Positions 15,426-44,949 of a stretch of DNA of 64,000 bases are shown in pieces. The stretch's first letter is position 1; each line of letters begins with the position of its first letter. A program made the translations under genes and the position numbers. Under the pieces are notes generated by a model. It made no database searches, was not told where the DNA came from, and saw only the letters and a program-made list of their open reading frames with translations. The stretch is from IMG/VR virus record IMGVR_UViG_3300030060_002740, positions 28,414 through 92,413 of that record. One strand, given 5' to 3'. Source of the stretch: a virus.

Positions 15426-16016
15426 GTGAAAAAGATGGAAAAAATTTTTGCTAGTCCCGAAAAAATTCCAGCCCATTTTTTGAAAAAAGACGGGGTAGAA
15501 TCTTTTGACCTATGGTTTGATACACTTCACAAGGACTTTCAGATGGCTAAGACCGAAGGTGGTGTTGATGATGCTATTGATGAGTTAGAGGAAGTAGTGG
15601 AAGAGTTCGACTTGACCGAGAATGAATGGGCTTCGGTTGATGATGCGTCTGATTACCTCTTTGAGCATAAGTACAAAGATAAGATGAAGAAGAGTTGGGC
15701 CGATATCATAAAAGCCACTATGAAAGCACCCCGTATTCCAAGAAAGAAAGGACAGAAAAGAAACTCAAAGGAGCATTCTGATTTGTATACAGATGAAAAC
15801 CCAAAAGGAACTATTCATGGTTTGGGATTCAAGGATGAGGAGAAGTCTAGGAAGTCTGTTTCTAAGATAAAGAACAGTAACAGAAGTCATGCACATAAAA
15901 CACAAGCCGCAATAGCAATGGAGCAAAGAGCAAGGGAAATGGGTAAGACCAAAGAAGCAGCGATATACAGGAAGTTCATAGAACAGCAGAAAAAGAAAAC
16001 CGAGGCTAGAAAATGA
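15426..16016 (+). CDS. hypothetical protein with acidic N-half and basic C-half, joined by an SWADIIK motif
   Basis: C-half HSDLYTDENPKGTIHGLGFKD resembles, from recall, widespread marine phage proteins. Confidence 0.65.
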   Translation: MKKMEKIFASPEKIPAHFLKKDGVESFDLWFDTLHKDFQMAKTEGGVDDAIDELEEVVEEFDLTENEWASVDDASDYLFEHKYKDKMKKSWADIIKATMKAPRIPRKKGQKRNSKEHSDLYTDENPKGTIHGLGFKDEEKSRKSVSKIKNSNRSHAHKTQAAIAMEQRAREMGKTKEAAIYRKFIEQQKKKTEARK

Positions 16017-17663: not shown

Positions 17664-17774
17664 TTGTTTTGGGGAGTCTGTTGTTTTTGTTTAGCAGTAA
17701 CTCCCTTTGAGTCATCAACTTCTTCCGGTGATTTTTGTGTTACATGTGGAACATACGAGGGGGCGTTATTTTGA
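17664..17774 (+). CDS. Zn-ribbon microprotein (36 aa)
   Basis: Manual translation MFWGVCCFC...CVTCG; GAGGTGA RBS. Confidence 0.4.
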   Translation: MFWGVCCFCLAVTPFESSTSSGDFCVTCGTYEGALF

Positions 17775-18430
17775 CTGTAACAAGAAAAAGATGTCGTCTT
17801 TGTATGCACGAAGACAGGGAAATCTTTGAGAGAGATTTGGAGAGTATGCACCTTCACCCTGATGACTTGGACAGTAGGATGAACTGGCCTAGTGGGACAT
17901 CTGCCAAACATCAGAGAAATCACATGGGAGGTTATGCTGATGCCTCTAACCCCAAGTGTGCATTGTGTGTTTATGAGAATCGTTCAGAAATTGAACAGGA
18001 ATTGTATTCGGGAGATATGACTCCTGAACTTGCCGCCAAGATAGTGGGTTGTTCAAAGGAGCAAGTTGTTAGACACATCAAGAAACATACACAACCATTG
18101 GTGCAAAAAGCAGCAGCACAAATATTGGCGACAAAGGAAGTCAATGAGATTGATACCCTAAGTGGTAACATCACTAACCTTGAGAGAAAGTTGGAAGCCT
18201 TGTTTGAGATAGAAGACTTAGACCACAAATCAATTGATTCACTGACAAAGTTAGCGAAGGAAGTAAGAGAGTCGCTAAAGTATCTAATGGAGTTCAAGGG
18301 TAAACTCGTTCACAGAAGACAAGACACAATCATTGTTCATCAAATGCAGATTATCAAAGAAGTGTTAGCACAAAACCATCCCGAAGTTTGGTTGGATGTC
18401 AGAAAACAAATGGAGGATAAGTTACAATGA
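17771..18430 (+). CDS. putative terminase small subunit (duplicated Zn/HTH module plus coiled coil)
   Basis: CRLC...HQRNH and CALC...HIKKH repeats, helical C-terminus; upstream of TerL. Confidence 0.5.
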   Translation: MTVTRKRCRLCMHEDREIFERDLESMHLHPDDLDSRMNWPSGTSAKHQRNHMGGYADASNPKCALCVYENRSEIEQELYSGDMTPELAAKIVGCSKEQVVRHIKKHTQPLVQKAAAQILATKEVNEIDTLSGNITNLERKLEALFEIEDLDHKSIDSLTKLAKEVRESLKYLMEFKGKLVHRRQDTIIVHQMQIIKEVLAQNHPEVWLDVRKQMEDKLQ

Positions 18431-32868: not shown

Positions 32869-32895
32869 ATCCCTACGAAAGACTTGAGGGGTCAG

Positions 32896-35487
32896 ATGCC
32901 GCAAACAGGAATAGAGTTTGAAAAAGAAACTAGTGGCCTCACAAAACAGGTCTTAGATTTCTTTGAGAAGGTTCGTTATTCCTATCTTTCAGCAAGAGAA
33001 AATCCCGATGACTACGGGGATGCTTGGAAAAAAACAGTAAAGGATATCAGAGAACAATTAGATTCTCTTGATGATTTCAGCAATGAGTTGAAAACTTATG
33101 TCAAGGAAGACTTGGCTCAATCTGATGAAGCATACAATCCAAAGTCAAGACAAGCAAAAGAATTGTACGAAGCGGTAAAAGAACTTAGGTTCAAATCCGA
33201 AAAAGTCAGTGACCCGTTTTCAAAACAACTTGGTGATGATGTAATACCTAAGTTGTTGAAGAATGAAGCATTATTCGCTTATTTTATTCATTATGCACTA
33301 CGCTCTCATGCAAATGCTTTACCTGAAAAAGCGTGGAAGGCAGTGGAACTCAAACCTGACAAGATAACTCAAAACGTGATGGGTTTGGATTTAGAGCCAA
33401 AGGACATACCGCTATACATCATAGAACATTATGGCGGGGAAGAGGAAGACACAAGAAGAGTAGAGAGTAAGTTCAAGGGGGCTTACAAATTATTGGAGAA
33501 GGTGTATGCCTCTCAATATGATGAGGGTAAATGGGAGAATCTTGTTGAGTTAGATATTGCTAAGAGTGAGCAAAAGCAAGAAATTGATTTTATCGTTCCC
33601 AACAAACCAATGTATAGAATCTTTGAGATAGATGACATGAAGGAAATCAAGGGTCTTACTGGTGAGTACATTGTCCAAGAGAAGTATGACGGGATGAGAA
33701 TACAACTTCACAAGTTCAATGGTAAAGTCAGAATATACTCTTTCAATGAAAAAGACATTACAGATAAGTGTTCAAAACAAGTTAAGCAATTAGAAAAGAA
33801 AGCATTTGGGGATTGTATCTTAGATGGAGAACTCATGTTGTTTGACGGTGATGAACCACTACATAGAGCAGATACAATAGCCCATGTTTTCAAGAACAAA
33901 AAGGGTGGTGAACTAAAAGCACACGTCTTTGATATTATGGTTCATGAAGGAAAGAACATCGCTGATGAAACCCTAAGAGAAAGAAATAACATTCTTCTGT
34001 ACCAATACGCTCAACATTCATCAGAAGACTTAGCATTCCCATCTAAGAAAGATACAAGGATTGCTGACTCCATAAAAGAAGTAGAAACCTATGCTAAAGA
34101 AATAATGCAGTTACCTGCATCAGAAGGTGTGGTAATCAAGGATATAGAATCAACATACTACATTGGGGTTAAGAAAAATCCTAAGTGGATTAAGTGGAAG
34201 AAGTTCGTTGACTTGGATGTTATAGTTTTAGATGATAAGAAAACAAAGAGCAACTTACATTCCTACACAATGGGAGTTGGGCCAGTAAATGCTGAAACTG
34301 CTAGGAACTACAAGACTGTTGAGTTTGAGGATAAAGACTACTTAGAAGTAGGTAAGGCTCTCAATACAAAACAATCAGTAAAGATTGGTAGCATAGTCAG
34401 AGTGAAAGTTGACGAGGTTAAAAAAGGAAAGGACGGTTTCAAATTGTTCTCTGCTAAAGTTATAGAGATACCTGAAGTAACACAATCGGATACTGTTGAA
34501 ACATTAGAGCAATTAGCAAGTAAGACAAAGAAATCTCTCAATGCAATCGGATACACCTTTGGAGAAACAGTAGGCGGTGCATTTGAAGTTACATCAGGAA
34601 TGAAGAACCCAAGAGGTCAGACTAAGAAAGATGTAAAGAAAGGATATTACATTACAGACCACATACATGGAACTGCTGAGATTATTCTAAAGGAGGACAT
34701 GGATGGTTTCACAATCTATGGGTTTGAGGGAGATTCTCTTATGCAGAAGAATGCTCTATACAACATAGATATGTGGAAAGAACAAGTGGTTAGTATAATG
34801 AAAAGTAAACGTTCTACCTTTAGATTGGCTATCCGCAATGAGATATTAGACAGTGGTAGAGATAATCTAAGGTTTGAGCAGATATTAGATTATGTCAAAG
34901 ACAAACATCAAGGAACCTTTGAGGATTTATTCGACTCAGATGAAGGAAGATTAATGTCTTGGATGAAACAACAAGAAGATTTGGTTTATCTTCATCCCAA
35001 CAAGTTTACTGCAAGAGAAGACGTATTGGAAAAGGATGTTGAAGAATTACAAAAAGAAGAAATGGGAAAGTATACAATTAATCTTAGAGAAGATAATAAT
35101 GTTGATTTAATCATAGAATACAAAGACGAGCGTATGGGTTGGACTATTGATATTGAAGAGTCAGAAGACATATACGAGTTGTTTGGTAAATCAGGTAAGT
35201 ATCCGGCTATTGTTATGAAGAATGCAGGTGAGCCTAAGAAAGTCTTAGATAAAGGAAATATAGAATTAGGAATTCAAAAAGATGGATACCATGAATATAG
35301 ATTAGATGGAGATAAGTTCCAAACAAGAATGCACTTTAGAGTAATTCCTTTAGATGAACAAAAGAGTTGGATAGCATGGACAGGAAAGAAACAGGAAATG
35401 TTAGACGATGAAGAGAACCCAAATAAATGGAATCTGAATGAAGACTCTTATGCTCAATTACCTTTCCCTTCGGATAAAAAAGAGTAA
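32896..35487 (+). CDS. lig: ATP-dependent DNA ligase with N- and C-terminal extensions
   Basis: Motif I EKYDG, III ILDGEL, IIIa HVFDI, IV EGVVIK, V WIKWK, followed by an OB-fold-like region. Confidence 0.9.
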   Translation: MPQTGIEFEKETSGLTKQVLDFFEKVRYSYLSARENPDDYGDAWKKTVKDIREQLDSLDDFSNELKTYVKEDLAQSDEAYNPKSRQAKELYEAVKELRFKSEKVSDPFSKQLGDDVIPKLLKNEALFAYFIHYALRSHANALPEKAWKAVELKPDKITQNVMGLDLEPKDIPLYIIEHYGGEEEDTRRVESKFKGAYKLLEKVYASQYDEGKWENLVELDIAKSEQKQEIDFIVPNKPMYRIFEIDDMKEIKGLTGEYIVQEKYDGMRIQLHKFNGKVRIYSFNEKDITDKCSKQVKQLEKKAFGDCILDGELMLFDGDEPLHRADTIAHVFKNKKGGELKAHVFDIMVHEGKNIADETLRERNNILLYQYAQHSSEDLAFPSKKDTRIADSIKEVETYAKEIMQLPASEGVVIKDIESTYYIGVKKNPKWIKWKKFVDLDVIVLDDKKTKSNLHSYTMGVGPVNAETARNYKTVEFEDKDYLEVGKALNTKQSVKIGSIVRVKVDEVKKGKDGFKLFSAKVIEIPEVTQSDTVETLEQLASKTKKSLNAIGYTFGETVGGAFEVTSGMKNPRGQTKKDVKKGYYITDHIHGTAEIILKEDMDGFTIYGFEGDSLMQKNALYNIDMWKEQVVSIMKSKRSTFRLAIRNEILDSGRDNLRFEQILDYVKDKHQGTFEDLFDSDEGRLMSWMKQQEDLVYLHPNKFTAREDVLEKDVEELQKEEMGKYTINLREDNNVDLIIEYKDERMGWTIDIEESEDIYELFGKSGKYPAIVMKNAGEPKKVLDKGNIELGIQKDGYHEYRLDGDKFQTRMHFRVIPLDEQKSWIAWTGKKQEMLDDEENPNKWNLNEDSYAQLPFPSDKKE

Positions 35488-36776: not shown

Positions 36777-38171
36777 ATGTCAGGATACATTAAAACATTG
36801 AAAGACCTAGAAGCAGCAACATACGGATACGGTGGAAACACTGGTAATGCTCTACTCAAAGCGGGTGGAGTTGTTGGAGGATTCGGAACTCCTCACGATA
36901 CAGCAAGTAACCCATTTACTGCTGCCGCAGGTCTTGGCGACCTTTACAACGTTCTGTATGGACAGAAAGTTTGGTCTATGCTAAACCAAGAAGTTAACCC
37001 TCTTGCTATGTTGGCTAAGAGGCCATACACATCTTCAGGTTGGAGAGTTCTAAAGAGCCGACCTATCGGTGGTAGTGGTTCTTCCTTCGCAACAGGTTCT
37101 AACGCTGTAACTGCAAACATTTCGTCTGCAAACGCAGCAACACCAAGAGCAGATACAATTGGTGGAGTTGGAGAAAATGCAGTTCTTGGAACTGACTTTG
37201 TTGCACTTGCACCTGAGTACACCAAACTGTATGTCAGCCCTAAGACTATTGCACACCTGTTTGAGTTCTCAGAACTCGGTATGGAACTTGCTGCAATTGA
37301 TGATGGTGTCGGTGACATCAGGGCAATTGTTCGTGAGGACATGGGTAAACTACACGCAGAAGTTCAGAGCAAGATGCTAGTTATGCCTCTTGAGAAATAC
37401 TCAGAGAACGGAACAACTGGAATTGAGAAGAACTATACTTCTCTACTAAAGATTGTTTCATCTGCTGCGGAATTGGCTCAAATGGCTGATGACGATGTAT
37501 TCTACCACAACCAGACAAACAACGGAACTGCTGCACAACTTGCTGATGCAACCAGTATCTTTGGAACTGAGAGAACTGTAACTGTCAATACATCCGGTGG
37601 TAGTGGAAACTACACATACACTGGTGTTGCATCTTTCCTTGATGCAGAGGTTGACTTCGGAGCAAACTACACATCAGGCGGTTGCCGTGTACTAACTCTA
37701 AGTCTACTAAATGACATGATTCGCAGAATCAGACAGAATGGTGGAAACCCGAAAGTTATCATTACCGGATACGATACCATCCAAAAGATTGCTGACTTGC
37801 TACAAAGCCAAGAGCGATTCATGGACAGGAAAGAGGTTGTTCCAACCCACAACGGAGTTCGTGGTGTAAAGGGACAGGAAGTTGGATTCAGAGTTGCAAC
37901 ATACTATGACATCCCAATTATCCCTGCAAAGGATATGCCTTCTACTGGTAAGTCAACAAGCAACAGGCTTAGTGACATACTGGTTCTTGACACTGACCAC
38001 CTGTGGCTATCTGTGATGAAGCCTACTCAATACTTTGAGGATGGTATCACTAGTGGAAACCCATTCGGTGTTGGCAAACTTGGGAACCAAGGAATGTACC
38101 GCACTATGGGTGAGACTTGCTGTTCCTTCTTCAAGGGACAAGGTAAGATTACCAACCTAAAGAGTGCTTGA
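36777..38171 (+). CDS. major capsid protein (HK97 fold)
   Basis: Follows the protease/scaffold; 464 aa; haloarchaeal/magrovirus-type features by recall (YGQKVWSMLN, GGNPKVIITG, YYDIPII). Confidence 0.85.
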   Translation: MSGYIKTLKDLEAATYGYGGNTGNALLKAGGVVGGFGTPHDTASNPFTAAAGLGDLYNVLYGQKVWSMLNQEVNPLAMLAKRPYTSSGWRVLKSRPIGGSGSSFATGSNAVTANISSANAATPRADTIGGVGENAVLGTDFVALAPEYTKLYVSPKTIAHLFEFSELGMELAAIDDGVGDIRAIVREDMGKLHAEVQSKMLVMPLEKYSENGTTGIEKNYTSLLKIVSSAAELAQMADDDVFYHNQTNNGTAAQLADATSIFGTERTVTVNTSGGSGNYTYTGVASFLDAEVDFGANYTSGGCRVLTLSLLNDMIRRIRQNGGNPKVIITGYDTIQKIADLLQSQERFMDRKEVVPTHNGVRGVKGQEVGFRVATYYDIPIIPAKDMPSTGKSTSNRLSDILVLDTDHLWLSVMKPTQYFEDGITSGNPFGVGKLGNQGMYRTMGETCCSFFKGQGKITNLKSA

Positions 38172-38214: not shown

Positions 38215-38250
38215 GTAGCCTCTGCCCCGACAGTATGGGGCAGGGGTTAC
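38215..38250 (+). terminator. GC-rich hairpin after MCP
   Basis: CTGCCCC-gacagtat-GGGGCAG with extended flanks. Confidence 0.55.
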
Positions 38251-38277: not shown

Positions 38278-38712
38278 ATGGCTTATATTAGATTGAAAGA
38301 ACACAGAACAAGAGGCGATATAGAGATACAAGGCGCAGGTGAAACGGTATATTCTGTCAACGAAATACCTGTTGAGATACCTGCAAGAATTGCTGCACTT
38401 TACTTGGGTGACGAGCAAATGATTGTAGAGTTTATTGATAGCGATAAGAAAGATATCAAGAGTATGCCTGAAAATAGATTGGTTTCTATTAGAAACCATT
38501 TGGGTTTAGATGAGGGTGCAGATGTTTTGAACGTCCTATATCCTAAGAAAGCAAGAACTACTGTTAAGAAGAAAGTTGAGGAGGTTGTTGAAACTGTTAC
38601 TGAAACCGTTGTTGAAACAGTTATACCAGAAAAGAAAACACCTGCTCCTAAGAAAGCAACAACCAAAAAAGAACCTGCTAAGAAAACAACCACTAAGAAG
38701 GAAGTGGAATGA
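38278..38712 (+). CDS. hypothetical head-associated protein with K/T/P-rich tail
   Basis: 144 aa, directly after MCP. Confidence 0.65.
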   Translation: MAYIRLKEHRTRGDIEIQGAGETVYSVNEIPVEIPARIAALYLGDEQMIVEFIDSDKKDIKSMPENRLVSIRNHLGLDEGADVLNVLYPKKARTTVKKKVEEVVETVTETVVETVIPEKKTPAPKKATTKKEPAKKTTTKKEVE

Positions 38713-38993
38713 TGGTAGGAGGAGTAGCGGGTAGTCCAGTTAGAACCGCTAGTGCAGTGTTAAATGTAGGTAACTGTAAATTGAACAGTGTTCATTTTAC
38801 TTCTACTGGAACTGCAACTCTAAAAATATACGACCACAATAGCACAACTGTTGGTTCTGCTGATGAGGTCGCACGTCTAATTTTAACCGCTAATACAACA
38901 ACTGAGTTCGATTTGCATGGGAGAGCAATGGGAACAGGTATTACGGCAATATTAAGTGGTACAGGGGGAGCGTACTCTTGCACATGGAGTTGA
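38709..38993 (+). CDS. putative small beta-rich virion (decoration) protein
   Basis: ATLKIYD...GITAILSG; G/T/A-rich. Confidence 0.55.
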   Translation: MMVGGVAGSPVRTASAVLNVGNCKLNSVHFTSTGTATLKIYDHNSTTVGSADEVARLILTANTTTEFDLHGRAMGTGITAILSGTGGAYSCTWS

Positions 38994-38997
38994 TTGC

Positions 38998-39408
38998 TTG
39001 CCGGTTATAGACACAGATACACGCTTAATAATGACTATGCTCTTTGTTGGAGCAGTAAGTGGATTGAACATTTACGTATACGCCTTAGTGGGAGTTTCCT
39101 TCCCATATGGCGGAGTGGCCCATGCAGTGTTATTCGGAGTTAGCACTGTCGGTGGGATAATGATATTGAAAGTAGTATTAGATTTAATTGCCAATGACTT
39201 CATAGAGGAGTTCTTACTAAAGAGAAGAATAGATTCTTATTGGAATAGAAAGGCAAACGATGAAGAAAACAGAAAGAGGGTCAGAGAGTCCTTACTTCAA
39301 TTCCAACAGGCATATTATCAGAACCAACAGATGCAACAGAATGTTGTGGTTCAGCCAGTGAACGACAATACTCTAAGCCCTACTTTCTTGACACAGTTCC
39401 AAGAGTGA
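38998..39408 (+). CDS. membrane protein (2-3 TM segments)
   Basis: Hydrophobic N-half, Gln-rich soluble tail; TTG start. Confidence 0.65.
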   Translation: MPVIDTDTRLIMTMLFVGAVSGLNIYVYALVGVSFPYGGVAHAVLFGVSTVGGIMILKVVLDLIANDFIEEFLLKRRIDSYWNRKANDEENRKRVRESLLQFQQAYYQNQQMQQNVVVQPVNDNTLSPTFLTQFQE

Positions 39409-39417
39409 GGTTAGTGC

Positions 39418-39645
39418 ATGGTCGGAGAAATCCTAATGGGGTTCGATGAATCCACATTAGCATATGACTTACAAAGAGCGCATTCTGCTGATATTTGGTT
39501 TCTAAGAGCAAGGTTCTACATTTGGGGAGCATTGGCTTCTGTCGGAACTTTTCTAATAGGCCATGCTTTGCCGATGTTCGGTGTTAATCTATACTCTATC
39601 TTTTGGGATGGGTTTGTCTCTCTTTGGAATCACTTATGGGGGTGA
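39418..39645 (+). CDS. small membrane protein
   Basis: FYIWGALASVGTFLIGHAL hydrophobic segment. Confidence 0.65.
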   Translation: MVGEILMGFDESTLAYDLQRAHSADIWFLRARFYIWGALASVGTFLIGHALPMFGVNLYSIFWDGFVSLWNHLWG

Positions 39646-39651
39646 AGCCTA

Positions 39652-40350
39652 ATGTCCGTGATGACGGGCTTTGCCATACTCATAGTTGAGGCTATGAACA
39701 AAATGTATCAACGGCTTCACTCTATACCGTTTGGGGTGTATGGTGCAAGCAAAGTAGGTAAAACAACATTACACCACCAATTGAGAACAAGAGGGGAAGT
39801 CCCTGCTATTACTGATAGAACAGTTGGTTTGCATCGAGCCACAAGAAAGTATGTCAAACTTGACGGTGATGCTCACACAATAAAATCAGCAGATGTTGGA
39901 GGAGAAACGGTTTATTGGAACGAATGGTTAGAAGACATGCGTGGTCGTCATGTAAAATACATTATTTTTATGATAGATGATAGACATATGGATAAGCACT
40001 ATGATATAGAACAACAACTATGTTGGACATTTTTAGTTGATACTATTTGTTCATCCTATTGGAATGTGAACGGAGTTAGCACTATTGGTGGATTGATGGG
40101 GAAGAAAAGAAAAAAGAAACCTCATGATTACCCAATAGCAGTATCTATTTGGGCCAACAAATATGACTTGTGGAAAGACAAATATGATTACAATGGAGAT
40201 ATGGATAAACACCCTATATTTGAATCATTTAAACCGGGTATGCAAAAGTTGAATGATAAGGGAATACCATGCCATAAGTATATTGTAAGTGCTAAATCTG
40301 ATTCGGAGATGGTATATAGGGGAATCCTAACAATCATAAAGGACTACTGA
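39652..40350 (+). CDS. Ras-superfamily (Arf/Rab-like) small GTPase
   Basis: G1 GASKVGKT, G2 RTVG, G3 DVGG, G4 NKYD, G5 SAK; hydrophobic N-terminal helix. Confidence 0.85.
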   Translation: MSVMTGFAILIVEAMNKMYQRLHSIPFGVYGASKVGKTTLHHQLRTRGEVPAITDRTVGLHRATRKYVKLDGDAHTIKSADVGGETVYWNEWLEDMRGRHVKYIIFMIDDRHMDKHYDIEQQLCWTFLVDTICSSYWNVNGVSTIGGLMGKKRKKKPHDYPIAVSIWANKYDLWKDKYDYNGDMDKHPIFESFKPGMQKLNDKGIPCHKYIVSAKSDSEMVYRGILTIIKDY

Positions 40351-40362
40351 GGGAGGGATACC

Positions 40363-41037
40363 ATGTCTATGCAATTTCAGCCACCTAGTTTAATTGGCGC
40401 ACAGTCAGCAAATACAGGAATGAACCCATTCCTTGACAGACTCTCTGCTGCAAGAGCGGCAGGTTCAGTCATGCTTTATGAGTACAAAAGTGTTAAGCCA
40501 AAAAAACAATTGAAAGAAATAACTAAGGTTTTGATGCCCGAAAAGAAAAAATTGTTAGGAATAAAATACGGGTTCAAATACAACATAAAAGATAGATGTG
40601 TAGTATGTGGAACACAGAAGAATTGGGAAGCAGGGGACACAATGAGGCCACCCCTTCCTTTACATAAAGTGCGTAAAGGATACCCGATGAGAGGAACATA
40701 TTGTGAGAAACACGCTCAGATACATAGGCAGTATGAAATGTTAGAGCAACAAATGTTAGCAGAGGAACATGGTCTTTCTTTTAGTGCTTATATTCCATCG
40801 GCAAGAAGTTTGAATCCTCTAGCAAGTGGCCCTATGACTAGTCTAAAACAGGGAGATATTACTTCTTTAACATCATTAGGTTGGACTATCAAACCTCCTA
40901 TTGCTTTAGTAGAAACTAAAGAAGAAGAATTGTTCAGATTAATCATAGAAACTAATGGAATCAATAGTAGGATGAAAACTCTATTAGCCGAAGGCACTAG
41001 GGTATCATCAACACAAGACGAGGAGGATGTAGAGTAA
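40363..41037 (+). CDS. Zn-finger protein
   Basis: CVVCG...YCEKH. Confidence 0.65.
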   Translation: MSMQFQPPSLIGAQSANTGMNPFLDRLSAARAAGSVMLYEYKSVKPKKQLKEITKVLMPEKKKLLGIKYGFKYNIKDRCVVCGTQKNWEAGDTMRPPLPLHKVRKGYPMRGTYCEKHAQIHRQYEMLEQQMLAEEHGLSFSAYIPSARSLNPLASGPMTSLKQGDITSLTSLGWTIKPPIALVETKEEELFRLIIETNGINSRMKTLLAEGTRVSSTQDEEDVE

Positions 41038-41735
41038 TGGGATTATTTGGAACAAGTAACAGTTCGTTGTCTACTCAAATACAAGGACAACAACAAACTA
41101 ACTTCAAAGCCATGAATAATCTATTGACACTACAAGAAAATCACGTAGAGGATTTCTTTCAGTATCATGGAGAAGCATTTTTGGGTGCTTTGGAGAAGTT
41201 AATTGAGGATGTGGTAACACGTTCAGTAAGTCAAATGTTAACTAAGTTAGAGTTTAATCAGAGTTCAAGTGGTAATCTAACAATCGCTCCTGAAGCACTT
41301 ACTGAGTTTACGTCAATAACCCAAGAAAATATTGATTTGGATTTGGCTAATCTTTTGGCTACCGCAATAAATAGTGAAGTTGTTATGCAAAGGAGAATGG
41401 CTAAACAACAGTATCTTGAAGCACAAGGGTTCTCCTCTCCTTCTCAACCACAACCTACAACAACTCCAATGGGTATGAATCCAAATGGATTAGACCCATC
41501 ACAGATACAAGGTGCTAATATGGCAGTTGGAATGAATAACACCATGATGCAACAACAAATGGCTTTCAATAACCAATCAGGATATCCTGTTCCTCCTTCT
41601 GGATATGACAGTATGAACAATCCATATTGGATTGACCCCGCAACAGGCCAACCAACATACAGTCCACCGCAGAGTGGATTAGGTATAGCATCAGGACTCG
41701 GAAAAGCAGTTGCATGGGCTAAGTGGTTAGCATAG
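41037..41735 (+). CDS. Q/P/N-rich protein with C-terminal amphipathic helix
   Basis: Low-complexity region; ends GLGKAVAWAKWLA. Confidence 0.65.
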   Translation: MGLFGTSNSSLSTQIQGQQQTNFKAMNNLLTLQENHVEDFFQYHGEAFLGALEKLIEDVVTRSVSQMLTKLEFNQSSSGNLTIAPEALTEFTSITQENIDLDLANLLATAINSEVVMQRRMAKQQYLEAQGFSSPSQPQPTTTPMGMNPNGLDPSQIQGANMAVGMNNTMMQQQMAFNNQSGYPVPPSGYDSMNNPYWIDPATGQPTYSPPQSGLGIASGLGKAVAWAKWLA

Positions 41736-41750
41736 GATGGGGTCTGATGG

Positions 41751-43874
41751 ATGGCGGAGATAAAAGTAACAAGTAGGGTTGTTGACGGGTTAAAAGTAGG
41801 ATTTATTCTCAAACCCGAAAAGAAAAAACAATCTGTTGATGACTTGTTTAGTGATGATGAGTTATTCAGAACTCTTACTGCTTTTATCTTCAATGGTATT
41901 TCTAACACATCACCCATGAAAGGAGTTCGTAGATTAACTAGAAAATTAATCTCACTAGATGATTCTGATTATAGAGGTACAGACTTAGAGTTCAATGAAA
42001 TAGAGTATGAAAAATATCTTGATAACTACTTTACTAAAATAGAGAAAGCACAATTAGATGAATTAGTTGATATGCTTGAGAATATGAATTTCGTTACTAA
42101 CTCAGGTAAAAATCGTGCTTTTTCACAAGGACTTCGTAAAGAGATGGCAAAAGAAAATATTAGACTTTTAGATTTGAGGAACGACTTGAAAGTTAGTAAA
42201 TTACTAGGTAAGAGATACGGTAAAGGATTAGATGAAACTGATGTTGATGATAGTGTAAAAGGTAAGAAGGCTGCTGAGAAAAGAAGAGAGGAAAAATATG
42301 AGCAAAGAAGCAGTAGATTGTTAGGGGCTTTTGATAGAAGTGAACCCGCACTCTATCCATCAATATTAATGAAGCACATTACTATTTCAGGTGGAGTAAT
42401 AACTATTGATACAGAAGAATATTTCAAAGAGATTTTCAAGAAAGAAGGGTATGGAACAATAGGAACAGGCTCATTTCAATTTAATGTAGGCGGAGCATCA
42501 AAATCAACATTTGAAGGTAAGGATGAAGAATCTAAGAAGGAAAAGGATAAGAGATTAGATAGAGAAGGAGAGGAACAAGCATTAGAAGACTTTGGTTCAG
42601 ATATGGAAACTGATGAAGGCATAACTCAAGAAGAAGTAAAAATGCTGACTAAAGCAAATCCTGATGCTATCATTTCTGAAAACTATGGACAACCAGTTGA
42701 CCAATTAGTATCTCTTGTGATTTTAGATGGTGGTAAATATGAATTGTTTGTGTTTGGAGAAAGACAGTCTTTCAGTTCTAATAGTAGAGATGAGAATATG
42801 GAAGATGTTTGGAATGCTATTCAAGACGTAAAGATGCCTGATAAGAAGTCATTACTTGATATTCTTCGCTCACAGAGAAAATCAGTATTGAAAGACACTA
42901 TCCTTTCTTTCATTACTCCAAGAGAAAATAAGATATCCATAGGAACTGCTACTATGACGTTAAAGAGAAAAGAATGGAAAGATGAAGAAGATTTTATTCT
43001 TTGGTTGACCAAAGGAGCAGGTAGTGAGCAAGATAAGAAAGTCGTCACAAAGGCGAGAAAACTTTCTGAACATCTTATGAAGATTGATAATCAGATAGAT
43101 GCTATTGAAAGTAGTTGGAATGAGTATAATACCAATGTTTCTTTTGATAGATTTTTCTCATACTTAATGTCTAAACAAAGAAAGGAAATGGTAGGTTGGC
43201 TTCAAGATTTAATCACAAGCATAAAGGATGACAAGTATAATGTTGATAATCCAATACAACAAGAAACAAAACCTGTCGTAGATGCAGAAGGAAACCCTGT
43301 TTTAGATGAAAGAGGATTTGCAGAGCGAGAGGTTGTAAGAGAGGGGAGGATACAGGTTGAGCAACAGGGTAAGAAAGTTAAATACGAACCAGTATATGAT
43401 AACCATGAAAAACTCATGGGGTTATTATCCACATTAAGAAAACAATTGCGTAATAGTAAGATAACAGAGGGACTTAACGTTGGTCAGTTCTTTTTACAAG
43501 AAGGAAAGAGAGAGGACTTAATCTTGGAAGAACTACAAAAAGATGTATTAGACGCTCTAAAAGGACAAGGAGACTTTCAGACTTACAAGGATGAGGAAAC
43601 AGGAGAGTCTACTGAATTTAGAATGACTACAAACAAATACGTTCCAATAATCAAATACACATCAAATGCTCCTAAGAAAATGGTGATTGATACTAAGTTA
43701 GACGGAATATCAAGTAGAGAGTTCAAGCGCGGAAGATTCAGTGAATCAAGAGTCAGAGCAACTGATAAACAGAAGGAAGAAAGAGCAGGTAAAGGGGATA
43801 AGAATGACCCTGAAGAATTACAACTTGTTTATAATGAATATATGGCTTTGAAGGAATTAATAGGAAGTGTATGA
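41751..43874 (+). CDS. large charged hypothetical protein
   Basis: 707 aa. Confidence 0.7.
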   Translation: MAEIKVTSRVVDGLKVGFILKPEKKKQSVDDLFSDDELFRTLTAFIFNGISNTSPMKGVRRLTRKLISLDDSDYRGTDLEFNEIEYEKYLDNYFTKIEKAQLDELVDMLENMNFVTNSGKNRAFSQGLRKEMAKENIRLLDLRNDLKVSKLLGKRYGKGLDETDVDDSVKGKKAAEKRREEKYEQRSSRLLGAFDRSEPALYPSILMKHITISGGVITIDTEEYFKEIFKKEGYGTIGTGSFQFNVGGASKSTFEGKDEESKKEKDKRLDREGEEQALEDFGSDMETDEGITQEEVKMLTKANPDAIISENYGQPVDQLVSLVILDGGKYELFVFGERQSFSSNSRDENMEDVWNAIQDVKMPDKKSLLDILRSQRKSVLKDTILSFITPRENKISIGTATMTLKRKEWKDEEDFILWLTKGAGSEQDKKVVTKARKLSEHLMKIDNQIDAIESSWNEYNTNVSFDRFFSYLMSKQRKEMVGWLQDLITSIKDDKYNVDNPIQQETKPVVDAEGNPVLDERGFAEREVVREGRIQVEQQGKKVKYEPVYDNHEKLMGLLSTLRKQLRNSKITEGLNVGQFFLQEGKREDLILEELQKDVLDALKGQGDFQTYKDEETGESTEFRMTTNKYVPIIKYTSNAPKKMVIDTKLDGISSREFKRGRFSESRVRATDKQKEERAGKGDKNDPEELQLVYNEYMALKELIGSV

Positions 43875-43875
43875 A

Positions 43876-44949
43876 ATGAGTAAGGTTCGTTCTCCAAGTG
43901 ATTTTACAGATATTAACGTGAACTACGCAATAGGAAATGGACATTATACCACACATACAGATGTTTCTAATCTCTTGCAAATAAGTGCCTTCAGTGATAC
44001 TACTACTCCTACTAGAGCGGAAGTAGGTAAGATAATCAAGAGAGTAGAGGAAAAGATTGATGATAGCATAAAACAATCTTACAGGCCAATAATACATCAT
44101 GAGGAGTTCTATTCTTTTGATGGATGGAATAAGGGTTCATACCCTGTTCAGCCTTATCGTGATTATGTAGGTTTTATTCAACTATCACAACCCAAGATTC
44201 AGAAGTTAGTTCGGCTAGAAGTATGGCAAGGTGATAGGTATATTGACTTGGCATCTGCAACTGCTAGGCTAACCCTACCAACTTCTGTTACTAATAGTGC
44301 ATGGACAATATCTCTCACTGCCGGAACTTACACTTTCAATCTCGTAGAGGGAACTCACTTCTATGATAACTTTGGTTCAAGCACAACCGCAAGTCAACTG
44401 TCTGATGCAATCAATGAGAGATTCCCCGCAAAGACTGCTAGGTTTACGGGAGAAACTGCTCGTAAGACTTTGAAGGACACCACTAATACGGTGAGCATAT
44501 CTGATTTCTTCTATGCAACAGTTGATTCTGAGAATGGAGATACCGTTGTAATATCCTCATTACTATTGGGTAATGATGGTTCAAGTTGTAATATAACATC
44601 CACATTCGGGACTATTGAATCATTTACTGGTAATCAGGACTCAGGAAGAACAAGAGACTTTTGGCAGATGAAAAAAGAGGGTAAGATATTCTTCTATCAA
44701 GAGTACCCTCATGTTACTAATCATTCAATCAGAGTTGCATATGTTGCGGGTGATGGTAGAGTACCTGCACCAATACATGAGGCAGCGACTAAGTTTGTGG
44801 CGGCAGAAGTAATACGACATGATGATAACTCAATCATGATTGCTGAAACAGAATCAAATATAGATTTGAAAACTAAGCATGATATTCTTCTTGAGGAAGC
44901 AAATAAGATAATTGACGGCAAGAAAAACATAATCCATTTCATAACGTGA
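43876..44949 (+). CDS. putative head-tail adaptor with an inserted beta domain
   Basis: YTTHTDV...EEKID N-terminus and IRVAYVAG..VPAPIHEAATKFVA C-terminus, typical of gp6/gp15-like adaptors. Confidence 0.6.
   Translation: MSKVRSPSDFTDINVNYAIGNGHYTTHTDVSNLLQISAFSDTTTPTRAEVGKIIKRVEEKIDDSIKQSYRPIIHHEEFYSFDGWNKGSYPVQPYRDYVGFIQLSQPKIQKLVRLEVWQGDRYIDLASATARLTLPTSVTNSAWTISLTAGTYTFNLVEGTHFYDNFGSSTTASQLSDAINERFPAKTARFTGETARKTLKDTTNTVSISDFFYATVDSENGDTVVISSLLLGNDGSSCNITSTFGTIESFTGNQDSGRTRDFWQMKKEGKIFFYQEYPHVTNHSIRVAYVAGDGRVPAPIHEAATKFVAAEVIRHDDNSIMIAETESNIDLKTKHDILLEEANKIIDGKKNIIHFIT

Follow-up and report, generated by a model that had tools for sequence, protein, structure and literature searches.

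Cassette organization and the closest described systems

Small GTPases of the Arf/Sar1 type act at membranes, where binding of guanosine triphosphate (GTP) frees an N-terminal amphipathic helix into the membrane and effectors are recruited (bioRxiv 10.1101/2024.02.28.582541). In archaea, the small GTPase ArvA and its Zn-ribbon partner ArvC drive vesicle formation (PMC10927574), and the egress machinery of head-tailed archaeal viruses has been described as "completely uncharacterized" (PMC10791045). Here we describe a cassette of five co-directional open reading frames (ORFs), built around an Arf-like small GTPase, in a 64,000-nucleotide stretch of viral DNA (the window). The window comprises bases 28414-92413 of the linear, 92.4-kb IMG/VR record IMGVR_UViG_3300030060_002740, which was judged 96% complete. 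The cassette recurs in at least three deep clades with GTPases only ~30% identical, and we tentatively read it as a late GTPase-gated membrane module that most likely serves egress.

The five ORFs occupy positions 39031-41735 of the window and are separated by gaps of 6-12 nucleotides, with one ATGA overlap. They encode the following proteins (lengths in amino acids, aa):

39031-39408, plus strand: TM1, 125 aa, two N-terminal hydrophobic segments followed by a 66-aa charged, Q/N-rich tail (holin-like architecture)
39418-39645, plus strand: TM2, 75 aa, one central hydrophobic segment and a Trp-rich C-terminal end
39652-40350, plus strand: Arf-like small GTPase, 232 aa, N-terminal hydrophobic helix, motifs G1-G5 and a polybasic loop
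40363-41037, plus strand: Cys/His protein, 224 aa, a basic helix, then CxxC ... MRGTYCxxH
41037-41735, plus strand: Q/N/P/G-rich protein (Q-rich protein), 232 aa, a conserved central helical part (approximately residues 37-127) and a Gly-rich hydrophobic C-terminal end

The start of TM1 was placed at the ATG at 39031, its reading frame being open from a GTG at 38956. The 66-residue tail of TM1 holds 9 K/R, 8 D/E and 18 Q/N residues, and Q and N together make up 19% of the residues of the Q-rich protein. A first-pass annotation of this DNA had described a GTPase flanked by two transmembrane (TM) proteins, which is borne out by the ORFs and by the hydrophobic segments of TM1 and TM2. The zinc finger that it assigned to the fourth protein corresponds to a C79-x2-C82 ... 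C114-x2-H117 motif; however, these ligands are not kept in all clades and zinc binding is only putative. The last protein is Q/P-rich as it had stated, but the proposed C-terminal amphipathic helix proved to be a hydrophobic, Gly-rich tail whose helical moment is low (0.22).

The viral GTPase shares with the Arf family (Arf1, Arf6, Arl3, Arl8, Sar1 and the Asgard ArfR structures 8OUN/8OUM) a Ras-like G domain, T-V-G in G2, D-V-G-G in G3, a Trp 11 residues after G3 and an N-terminal helix that is potentially membrane-inserting; this family also supplies its best PDB match, and the fold Z-scores are 11.5-12. Unlike Arf proteins, it has no Trp before the G3 Asp, carries a Ras-like G5 (SAK) and a polybasic insert of ~29 residues before strand 5, varies at the catalytic Gln and scores below the Pfam cut-off. 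G-alpha and SR-beta are the other close group: the top fold Z-scores (12.1-12.4) belong to G-alpha Ras-like domains, and there are weak SRPRB and G-alpha Pfam matches. However, the viral GTPase lacks the helical domain of G-alpha, its Z-scores tie with those of Arf within 1, and the Pfam scores are below the cut-off.

Like ArvA, the viral protein is a small GTPase with an N-terminal helix (amphipathic in ArvA) that is genetically locked to a zinc-type protein, a likeness that is a functional analogy and not a sequence comparison. In contrast to ArvA-ArvB-ArvC, no DUF2073 or DUF2072 was found by Pfam (E ≤ 1 for the window neighbours, E ≤ 0.01 for the clade-2 neighbours), and unlike the Arv operon the viral cassette includes two or three membrane proteins and the Q-rich protein. 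These comparisons bear on the possibility that the cassette manipulates the host by means other than lysis, through ArvA-like vesicle formation, superinfection exclusion or cell-surface remodelling. The analogy to vesicle budding by ArvA and ArvC (PMC10927574) and the presence of Arf GTPases on Asgard mobile-element regions (PMC11529989) favour this explanation, but the Arv partner domains are missing, a PADLOC search returned no match and genes for takeover or exclusion seldom lie in a late operon. We consider it unlikely.

Relocation and conservation of the cassette

The close set consisted of 80 IMG/VR loci with GTPases 72-97% identical to that of the window. Gene order was strict across the set: protease, major capsid protein (MCP), g144, g94, TM1, TM2, GTPase, Cys/His, Q-rich, g707 (variable), g360, g177 and tube. 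TM1 was detected in 78 of the 80 loci and TM2 in all 80, and the Cys/His gene adjoined the GTPase gene in 160/160 loci extending far enough. It should be noted that adjacency within the close clade proves nothing by itself, because the whole 12-kb region is collinear there.

Evidence beyond collinearity comes from the deep clades. ORF reading revealed the five-part architecture, together with a third small membrane protein, in L115 (clade 2a), L086 (deeper subclade 2b) and L184 (an 81-kb metagenome contig, clade 3). Counterparts of TM1 were recognized in these three loci by position and architecture, and counterparts of TM2 (69-78 aa) occupied the same position in the other clades. A tblastn search of the second clade with the window's neighbours found the GTPase only. 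Between-clade homology was then assessed by profile-profile comparison with hhalign, which gave a probability of 100% for the GTPase (E 3e-39), 96.5% for the Cys/His protein (E 8e-10) and 79% for the Q-rich protein (E 1.5e-5); the values for TM2 (P 0.03) and TM1 (P 0.16) were not significant. None of the cross-pairs between different cassette proteins exceeded 50% probability.

The position of the cassette relative to the virus backbone differs between clades. Three window genes mark the two sites:

36777-38171, plus strand: MCP, the left backbone flank (Pfam SU10_MCP, E 5.8e-10; phrog_24667, E 4e-25)
43867-44949, plus strand: g360, a conserved neck-region gene and the right backbone flank, homologue of HVTV1_125 (phrog_17057, E 9e-19)
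17735-18430, plus strand: homologue of a helix-turn-helix (HTH)/Zn-ribbon gene, the site that is empty in the window (tblastn of L115:10627-11385, E 6.6e-33 at 17777-18412)

In the window clade, the cassette is inserted between the MCP and the neck genes. Three near-complete clade-2 genomes, G001, G002 and G004, have it elsewhere: the terminase follows it at ~7-13 kb, and the MCP is ~23 kb away. There, the cassette of clades 2a and 2b stands at the head of the late operon and is directly followed by the HTH/Zn-ribbon gene, whose L115 product shows sub-threshold Pfam HTH matches, and then by the terminase block. No cassette stands in front of the HTH/Zn-ribbon homologue of the window. The clade-2 genomes, for their part, run from protease and MCP through ~2.3 kb to g360, g177 and tube, with neither cassette nor g707, and haloarchaeal virus HVTV-1 has the MCP, four small genes, the g360 homologue and the tube, again without the cassette. 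The g360 profile hidden Markov model matched HVTV-1 (E 1.4e-17) and the clade-2 genomes (E 1e-48 to 1e-52). Each clade therefore displays the other's empty site, and on this comparison of gene orders the cassette is a unit that can translocate and has been inserted into a common backbone. Relocation as a unit, together with the reciprocal empty sites, therefore indicates that the linkage is functional and not mere local synteny.

These results speak to the idea that the five genes are functionally unrelated and that their adjacency is the frozen order of close genomes. The collinearity of the 12-kb region within the close clade would fit that idea, but the internal order is kept at ~30% GTPase identity while the flanks change completely, and each of the two sites lacks the cassette in the clade that uses the other. 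The relocation already contradicts this idea, which is highly improbable. The first-pass annotation had taken absence of co-occurrence in relatives as grounds to abandon the module; the five genes do co-occur, with their order kept in the 80 close loci and in at least three deep clades. Its placement of the cassette between capsid and neck genes holds for the window clade but not elsewhere, clade 2 having it upstream of the terminase, and the position is a clade-specific accident.

The GTPase is conserved as strongly as the MCP. Among the 80 close loci, its median identity was 76.7% (minimum 72.4%), compared with 77.5% (minimum 63.2%) for the MCP. Medians were 70.9% for the Cys/His protein and 70.3% for the Q-rich protein, and 41-47% for g144, g94 and g707. 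Such conservation is one argument for an assembly platform, in which the module would anchor or organise, at the host membrane, either the assembly of capsids or tails or the packaging of DNA, with the GTPase as a checkpoint and no role in release. Co-transcription with the morphogenesis genes and the location directly before the HTH/Zn-ribbon gene and terminase block in clades 2a and 2b are further points in its favour. HVTV-1, however, builds the same backbone without the cassette, and free relocation within the genome speaks against a role tied to one assembly step. An assembly platform thus seems improbable to us.

The magrovirus papers that we searched do not mention a GTPase, and we found no paper describing the cassette; a literature search on archaeal viruses, small GTPases and Arf returned Asgard mobile-element and review papers only. 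What is new here is the evidence from relocation and empty sites, the addition of a third clade and the homology of the partners at profile level.

Three features of individual relatives were also recorded. In L184, an extremely acidic (D/E-rich) 260-aa protein (L184:7217-7999) is inserted between TM2 and the GTPase. In a 91.7-kb relative, the Cys/His stretch (L019:6684-7337, 49% identity) showed six stop codons when translated from the tblastn coordinates, while the flanking genes are fine, and this copy may be frameshifted or recombinant. Directly upstream of the clade-2a cassette, L115:491-7102 encodes a protein of 2203 aa, without a Pfam match, in which several Cys-rich motifs and a P/Q-rich end were noted.

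Sequence, fold and family of the GTPase

An alignment of 24 homologues showed that G1 (G31xxxxGKT), G2 (R56-T57-V-G), G3 (D81-V-G-G), W92, G4 (N169-K-x-D) and G5 (S213-A-K) are invariant, and G1, G3 and G4 were also invariant over 41 diverse members. Position 85, the catalytic-Gln site, is E in 15 of the 24 homologues, including the window protein (E85), and Q in nine; in the wider family Q, E, H, A or D occurs there. The five G motifs, the TVG and DVGG signatures and the E in place of Q reported in the first-pass annotation were thereby confirmed. Ras Q61E hydrolyses GTP, and the E at this position need not imply enzyme inactivation, even though the window protein does not have the Gln of DxGGQ. 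The variation between Q, E, H and A suggests that catalysis may depend on a partner.

AlphaFold predicted an N-terminal helix at residues 4-22, and in 41/41 family members examined the N-terminus consists of ~12-14 hydrophobic residues followed by basic ones, in agreement with the hydrophobic helix noted earlier. A polybasic loop (GKKRKKK) lies between helix 3 and strand 5, and the loop before NKxD holds 6-10 K/R in four clades. The hydrophobic helix and the basic loop, both of which suggest membrane binding, are retained in all clades.

Family assignment was approached at several levels. The sub-threshold Pfam matches of the window GTPase were MMR_HSR1, Roc, SRPRB, Arf and Ras, and NCBIfam returned only the generic small_GTP domain, below its cut-off. 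Arf was the Pfam family matched by most members (10 of 15 diverse members at E ≤ 0.1). The best PDB sequence match, both for the single sequence and for the profile, was 8oun_A; this accession belongs to the crystal-structure paper on the Asgard Arf-family proteins HodArfR1 and GerdArfR1 (bioRxiv 10.1101/2024.02.28.582541), and the title of PDB 8oum is GerdArfR1. When the AlphaFold model was compared with known folds, Foldseek and VIA-align both placed G-alpha Ras-like domains and Arf/Arl/ArfR proteins on top (Z 11.5-12.4), with values of 12.4 for G-alpha-i, 12.0 for Arf6, 11.8 for Arf1 and 11.5 for GerdArfR1. No Ras or Rab entries were among the 50 matches listed.

An exhaustive profile search of 1.8 billion representatives yielded 81 clusters at E ≤ 1e-3, and 6 of the 10 clusters most peripheral to the viral profile exceed the Pfam Arf cut-off. 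In a maximum-likelihood tree, which was unrooted and built without named reference GTPases, the cassette GTPases formed one clade (94/92) beside the peripheral Arf-positive proteins and away from Ras-like ones. We read the GTPase as a virus-borne protein that branched off from the Arf/G-alpha group and diverged from it, and not as a bona fide Arf-family member.

The family is compact and turned up in viral or metagenome DNA only. Searching INPHARED phages with the GTPase by tblastn gave no match, and no usable related loci were obtained for the distant members P0155, P0183 and P0130 among viral contigs or for P0155 among metagenomes. Across 185,579 species genomes the gene occurred at two loci only, both in one 'Maricaulis' metagenome-assembled genome (MAG). 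The two contigs of this 'Maricaulis sp.' MAG, L162 (NZMJ01000101.1) and L163 (NZMJ01000024.1), carry GTPases 72% and 62% identical to that of the window; they probably come from magroviruses and were mis-binned into this bacterial MAG.

Partner proteins and proposed function

TM1 has at least one transmembrane domain (TMD) and a charged hydrophilic C-terminus, the features used to recognize holins (PMC10791045), and the same build is found in three other clades. The cassette thus resembles holin cassettes in combining small late-region membrane proteins, one or two TMDs and a hydrophilic, strongly charged tail at the C-terminus. The lambda lysis cassette lies just upstream of the terminase block, and the viral cassette of clades 2a and 2b has the same location. 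In contrast to holin cassettes, it returned neither a holin family match nor an endolysin, and we know of no holin governed by a GTPase. A separate 144-aa ORF at 38278-38712, considered as a holin from matches at E 0.02-0.03, has no hydrophobic segment and was rejected.

An alignment of the Cys/His protein gave P46, L57, P59, C79, G83, G106, T112, C114, H117 and P157 as invariant residues. Among the putative ligands, C82 is replaced by Asp in clade 2a and both C114 and H117 are lost in clade 3. It matched no Pfam, PHROG or NCBIfam family, its AlphaFold model (predicted local distance difference test score, pLDDT, of 61) retrieved nothing from the PDB at E ≤ 0.001 with Foldseek, and in the ESM Atlas it hit unnamed viral clusters only. 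A complex prediction for the GTPase and the Cys/His protein scored 0.26 against a mark of 0.32, which is evidence neither way.

By analogy with the systems above, the five genes would make up a virus-specific membrane module that is complete in itself, has an Arf-like GTP switch at its centre and is transcribed together with the late (structural) genes. Once bound to GTP, the GTPase would use its helix and basic loop to settle on the host membrane from the cytoplasmic side, as Arf/Sar1 do, and there act on both viral membrane proteins; one of the two has a holin build (two TMDs and a charged tail). The Cys/His protein could serve as a regulator or effector, ArfGAP- or ArvC-like, and the Q/N/G-rich protein as a scaffold or membrane-active partner. 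The most likely output would be to breach or remodel the host membrane at a set time and so release the progeny. Such a late module, most probably for egress, is our leading reading, although we hold it with some reserve. Its stricter form, in which the cassette is the lysis/egress machine of head-tailed archaeal viruses and the Arf-like GTPase is the timer that triggers holin-like membrane proteins, is possible but more doubtful.

Several results weigh against a GTPase-gated egress module. The Pfam Arf score of the window GTPase is 15.2 bits, below the cut-off of 22.3, and its AlphaFold model is of moderate quality (pLDDT 63, with switch regions below 50). An ArfGAP-like zinc-finger role is weak because the putative Zn ligands vary between clades. 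TM1 and TM2 matched no holin family in Pfam, PHROG or NCBIfam. The cassette has no lytic enzyme domain; none was seen near it, and the Pfam, PHROG and NCBIfam scans showed no endolysin, the lysis genes of the window not having been searched for systematically. The late-operon placement suits virion or entry proteins equally, and the nearest named Atlas cluster of the Q-rich protein, which is a lead only, carries the ejection protein P22_gp7 (13% of members, score 0.89).

The last two points lead to entry machinery as another explanation: the membrane proteins and the Q/N/G-rich protein would be packaged in the virion and ejected to make or prime a channel across the host membrane, with the GTPase and the Cys/His protein co-ejected or acting as assembly factors. 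The cassette lies in the late structural operon in every clade, and the Q/G/M-rich composition and Gly-rich hydrophobic end of the Q-rich protein recall the internal and ejection proteins of phages. Nevertheless, the Pfam P22_gp7 model itself did not match the Q-rich protein, and a GTP switch requires cytoplasmic GTP. An N-terminal M-x-W tag carried by eight head-module ORFs (see below) is on none of the five proteins, which counts against entry if the tag marks packaged proteins. Moreover, the viruses possess a tail tube along with giant tail proteins, so that a podovirus-style ejectosome is not expected. Entry machinery therefore appears to us a minor possibility.

Under the egress reading, the cassette offers a clonable candidate for how head-tailed archaeal viruses leave their hosts (PMC10791045). 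The cassette also extends the range of known Arf-like GTPases to viruses of non-Asgard archaea, which bears on the origin of GTPase-driven membrane remodelling. If the cassette is indeed an egress machine, small GTPases would control membrane rupture or budding in viruses of non-Asgard archaea, and this control would share an evolutionary link with the Arf/Sar1 logic that underlies membrane traffic in eukaryotes.

Virus and genome context

The window has a GC content of ~39% and encodes a TFIIB zinc-ribbon protein, a ThiF-type E1 and a class II ribonucleotide reductase. Its head and packaging genes include terminase, portal, an ATP-dependent ligase, an S78 prohead protease and a tail-tube protein. 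The MCP is of the SU10/halovirus type, and its cultured relatives are haloarchaeal siphoviruses only, such as HVTV-1 and HCTV-1 (23-25% identity). Homologues of the GTPase originate from Tara Oceans and other marine metagenomes. Magroviruses are viruses assigned to Marine Group II (Poseidoniales) archaea, and the genome profile fits their published description (PMC5434244). From the GC content, the marine homologues, the gene profile and the affinity of the MCP, we infer a marine magrovirus-type virus. Haloferax, which had been proposed for expression experiments, is not the host of such a virus and would be a surrogate at best. As the hosts have not been cultured, tests of the cassette are limited to heterologous expression and biochemistry, both of which are feasible.

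Downstream of the cassette in the window clade lies one further gene:

41751-43874, plus strand: g707, a hypervariable 707-aa gene that adjoins the cassette in the window clade only

The median identity of g707 was 41%; it was detected in 29 of the 80 close loci, and other long genes take its place elsewhere. It was not found between the MCP and the g360 homologue in the clade-2 genomes or HVTV-1. It is probably part of the same insertion as the cassette, outside the conserved cassette.

Upstream of the window in the same record, a family B DNA polymerase is present as two adjacent frames of 564 and 330 aa (G000:C1:14776-15740), which recall the split DNA polymerase of magrovirus group B1 (PMC5434244). 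An 867-aa protein (32884-35487) of the head module carries the ATP-dependent DNA ligase domain; its gene stands between the portal region and the gene for the prohead protease. In the 106-nucleotide gap after the MCP stop codon, a GC-rich hairpin at 38222-38243 (CTGCCCC, 8-nucleotide loop, GGGGCAG) is followed by an A-rich run and may be a transcript-end or attenuation signal parting the MCP from the downstream genes.

The N-terminal tag, M-x-W-x-x-[ILV]-[ILV]-[KR], occurs on eight plus-strand ORFs upstream of and in the head-morphogenesis region (starts at 15684, 18427, 26279, 26869, 29168, 29679, 30175 and 32001), with MSWQDILK and MTWFDVLK as examples. Besides the cassette proteins, their neighbours from protease to tail tube are also free of it. 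It might serve as a signal by which packaged proteins are targeted or processed.

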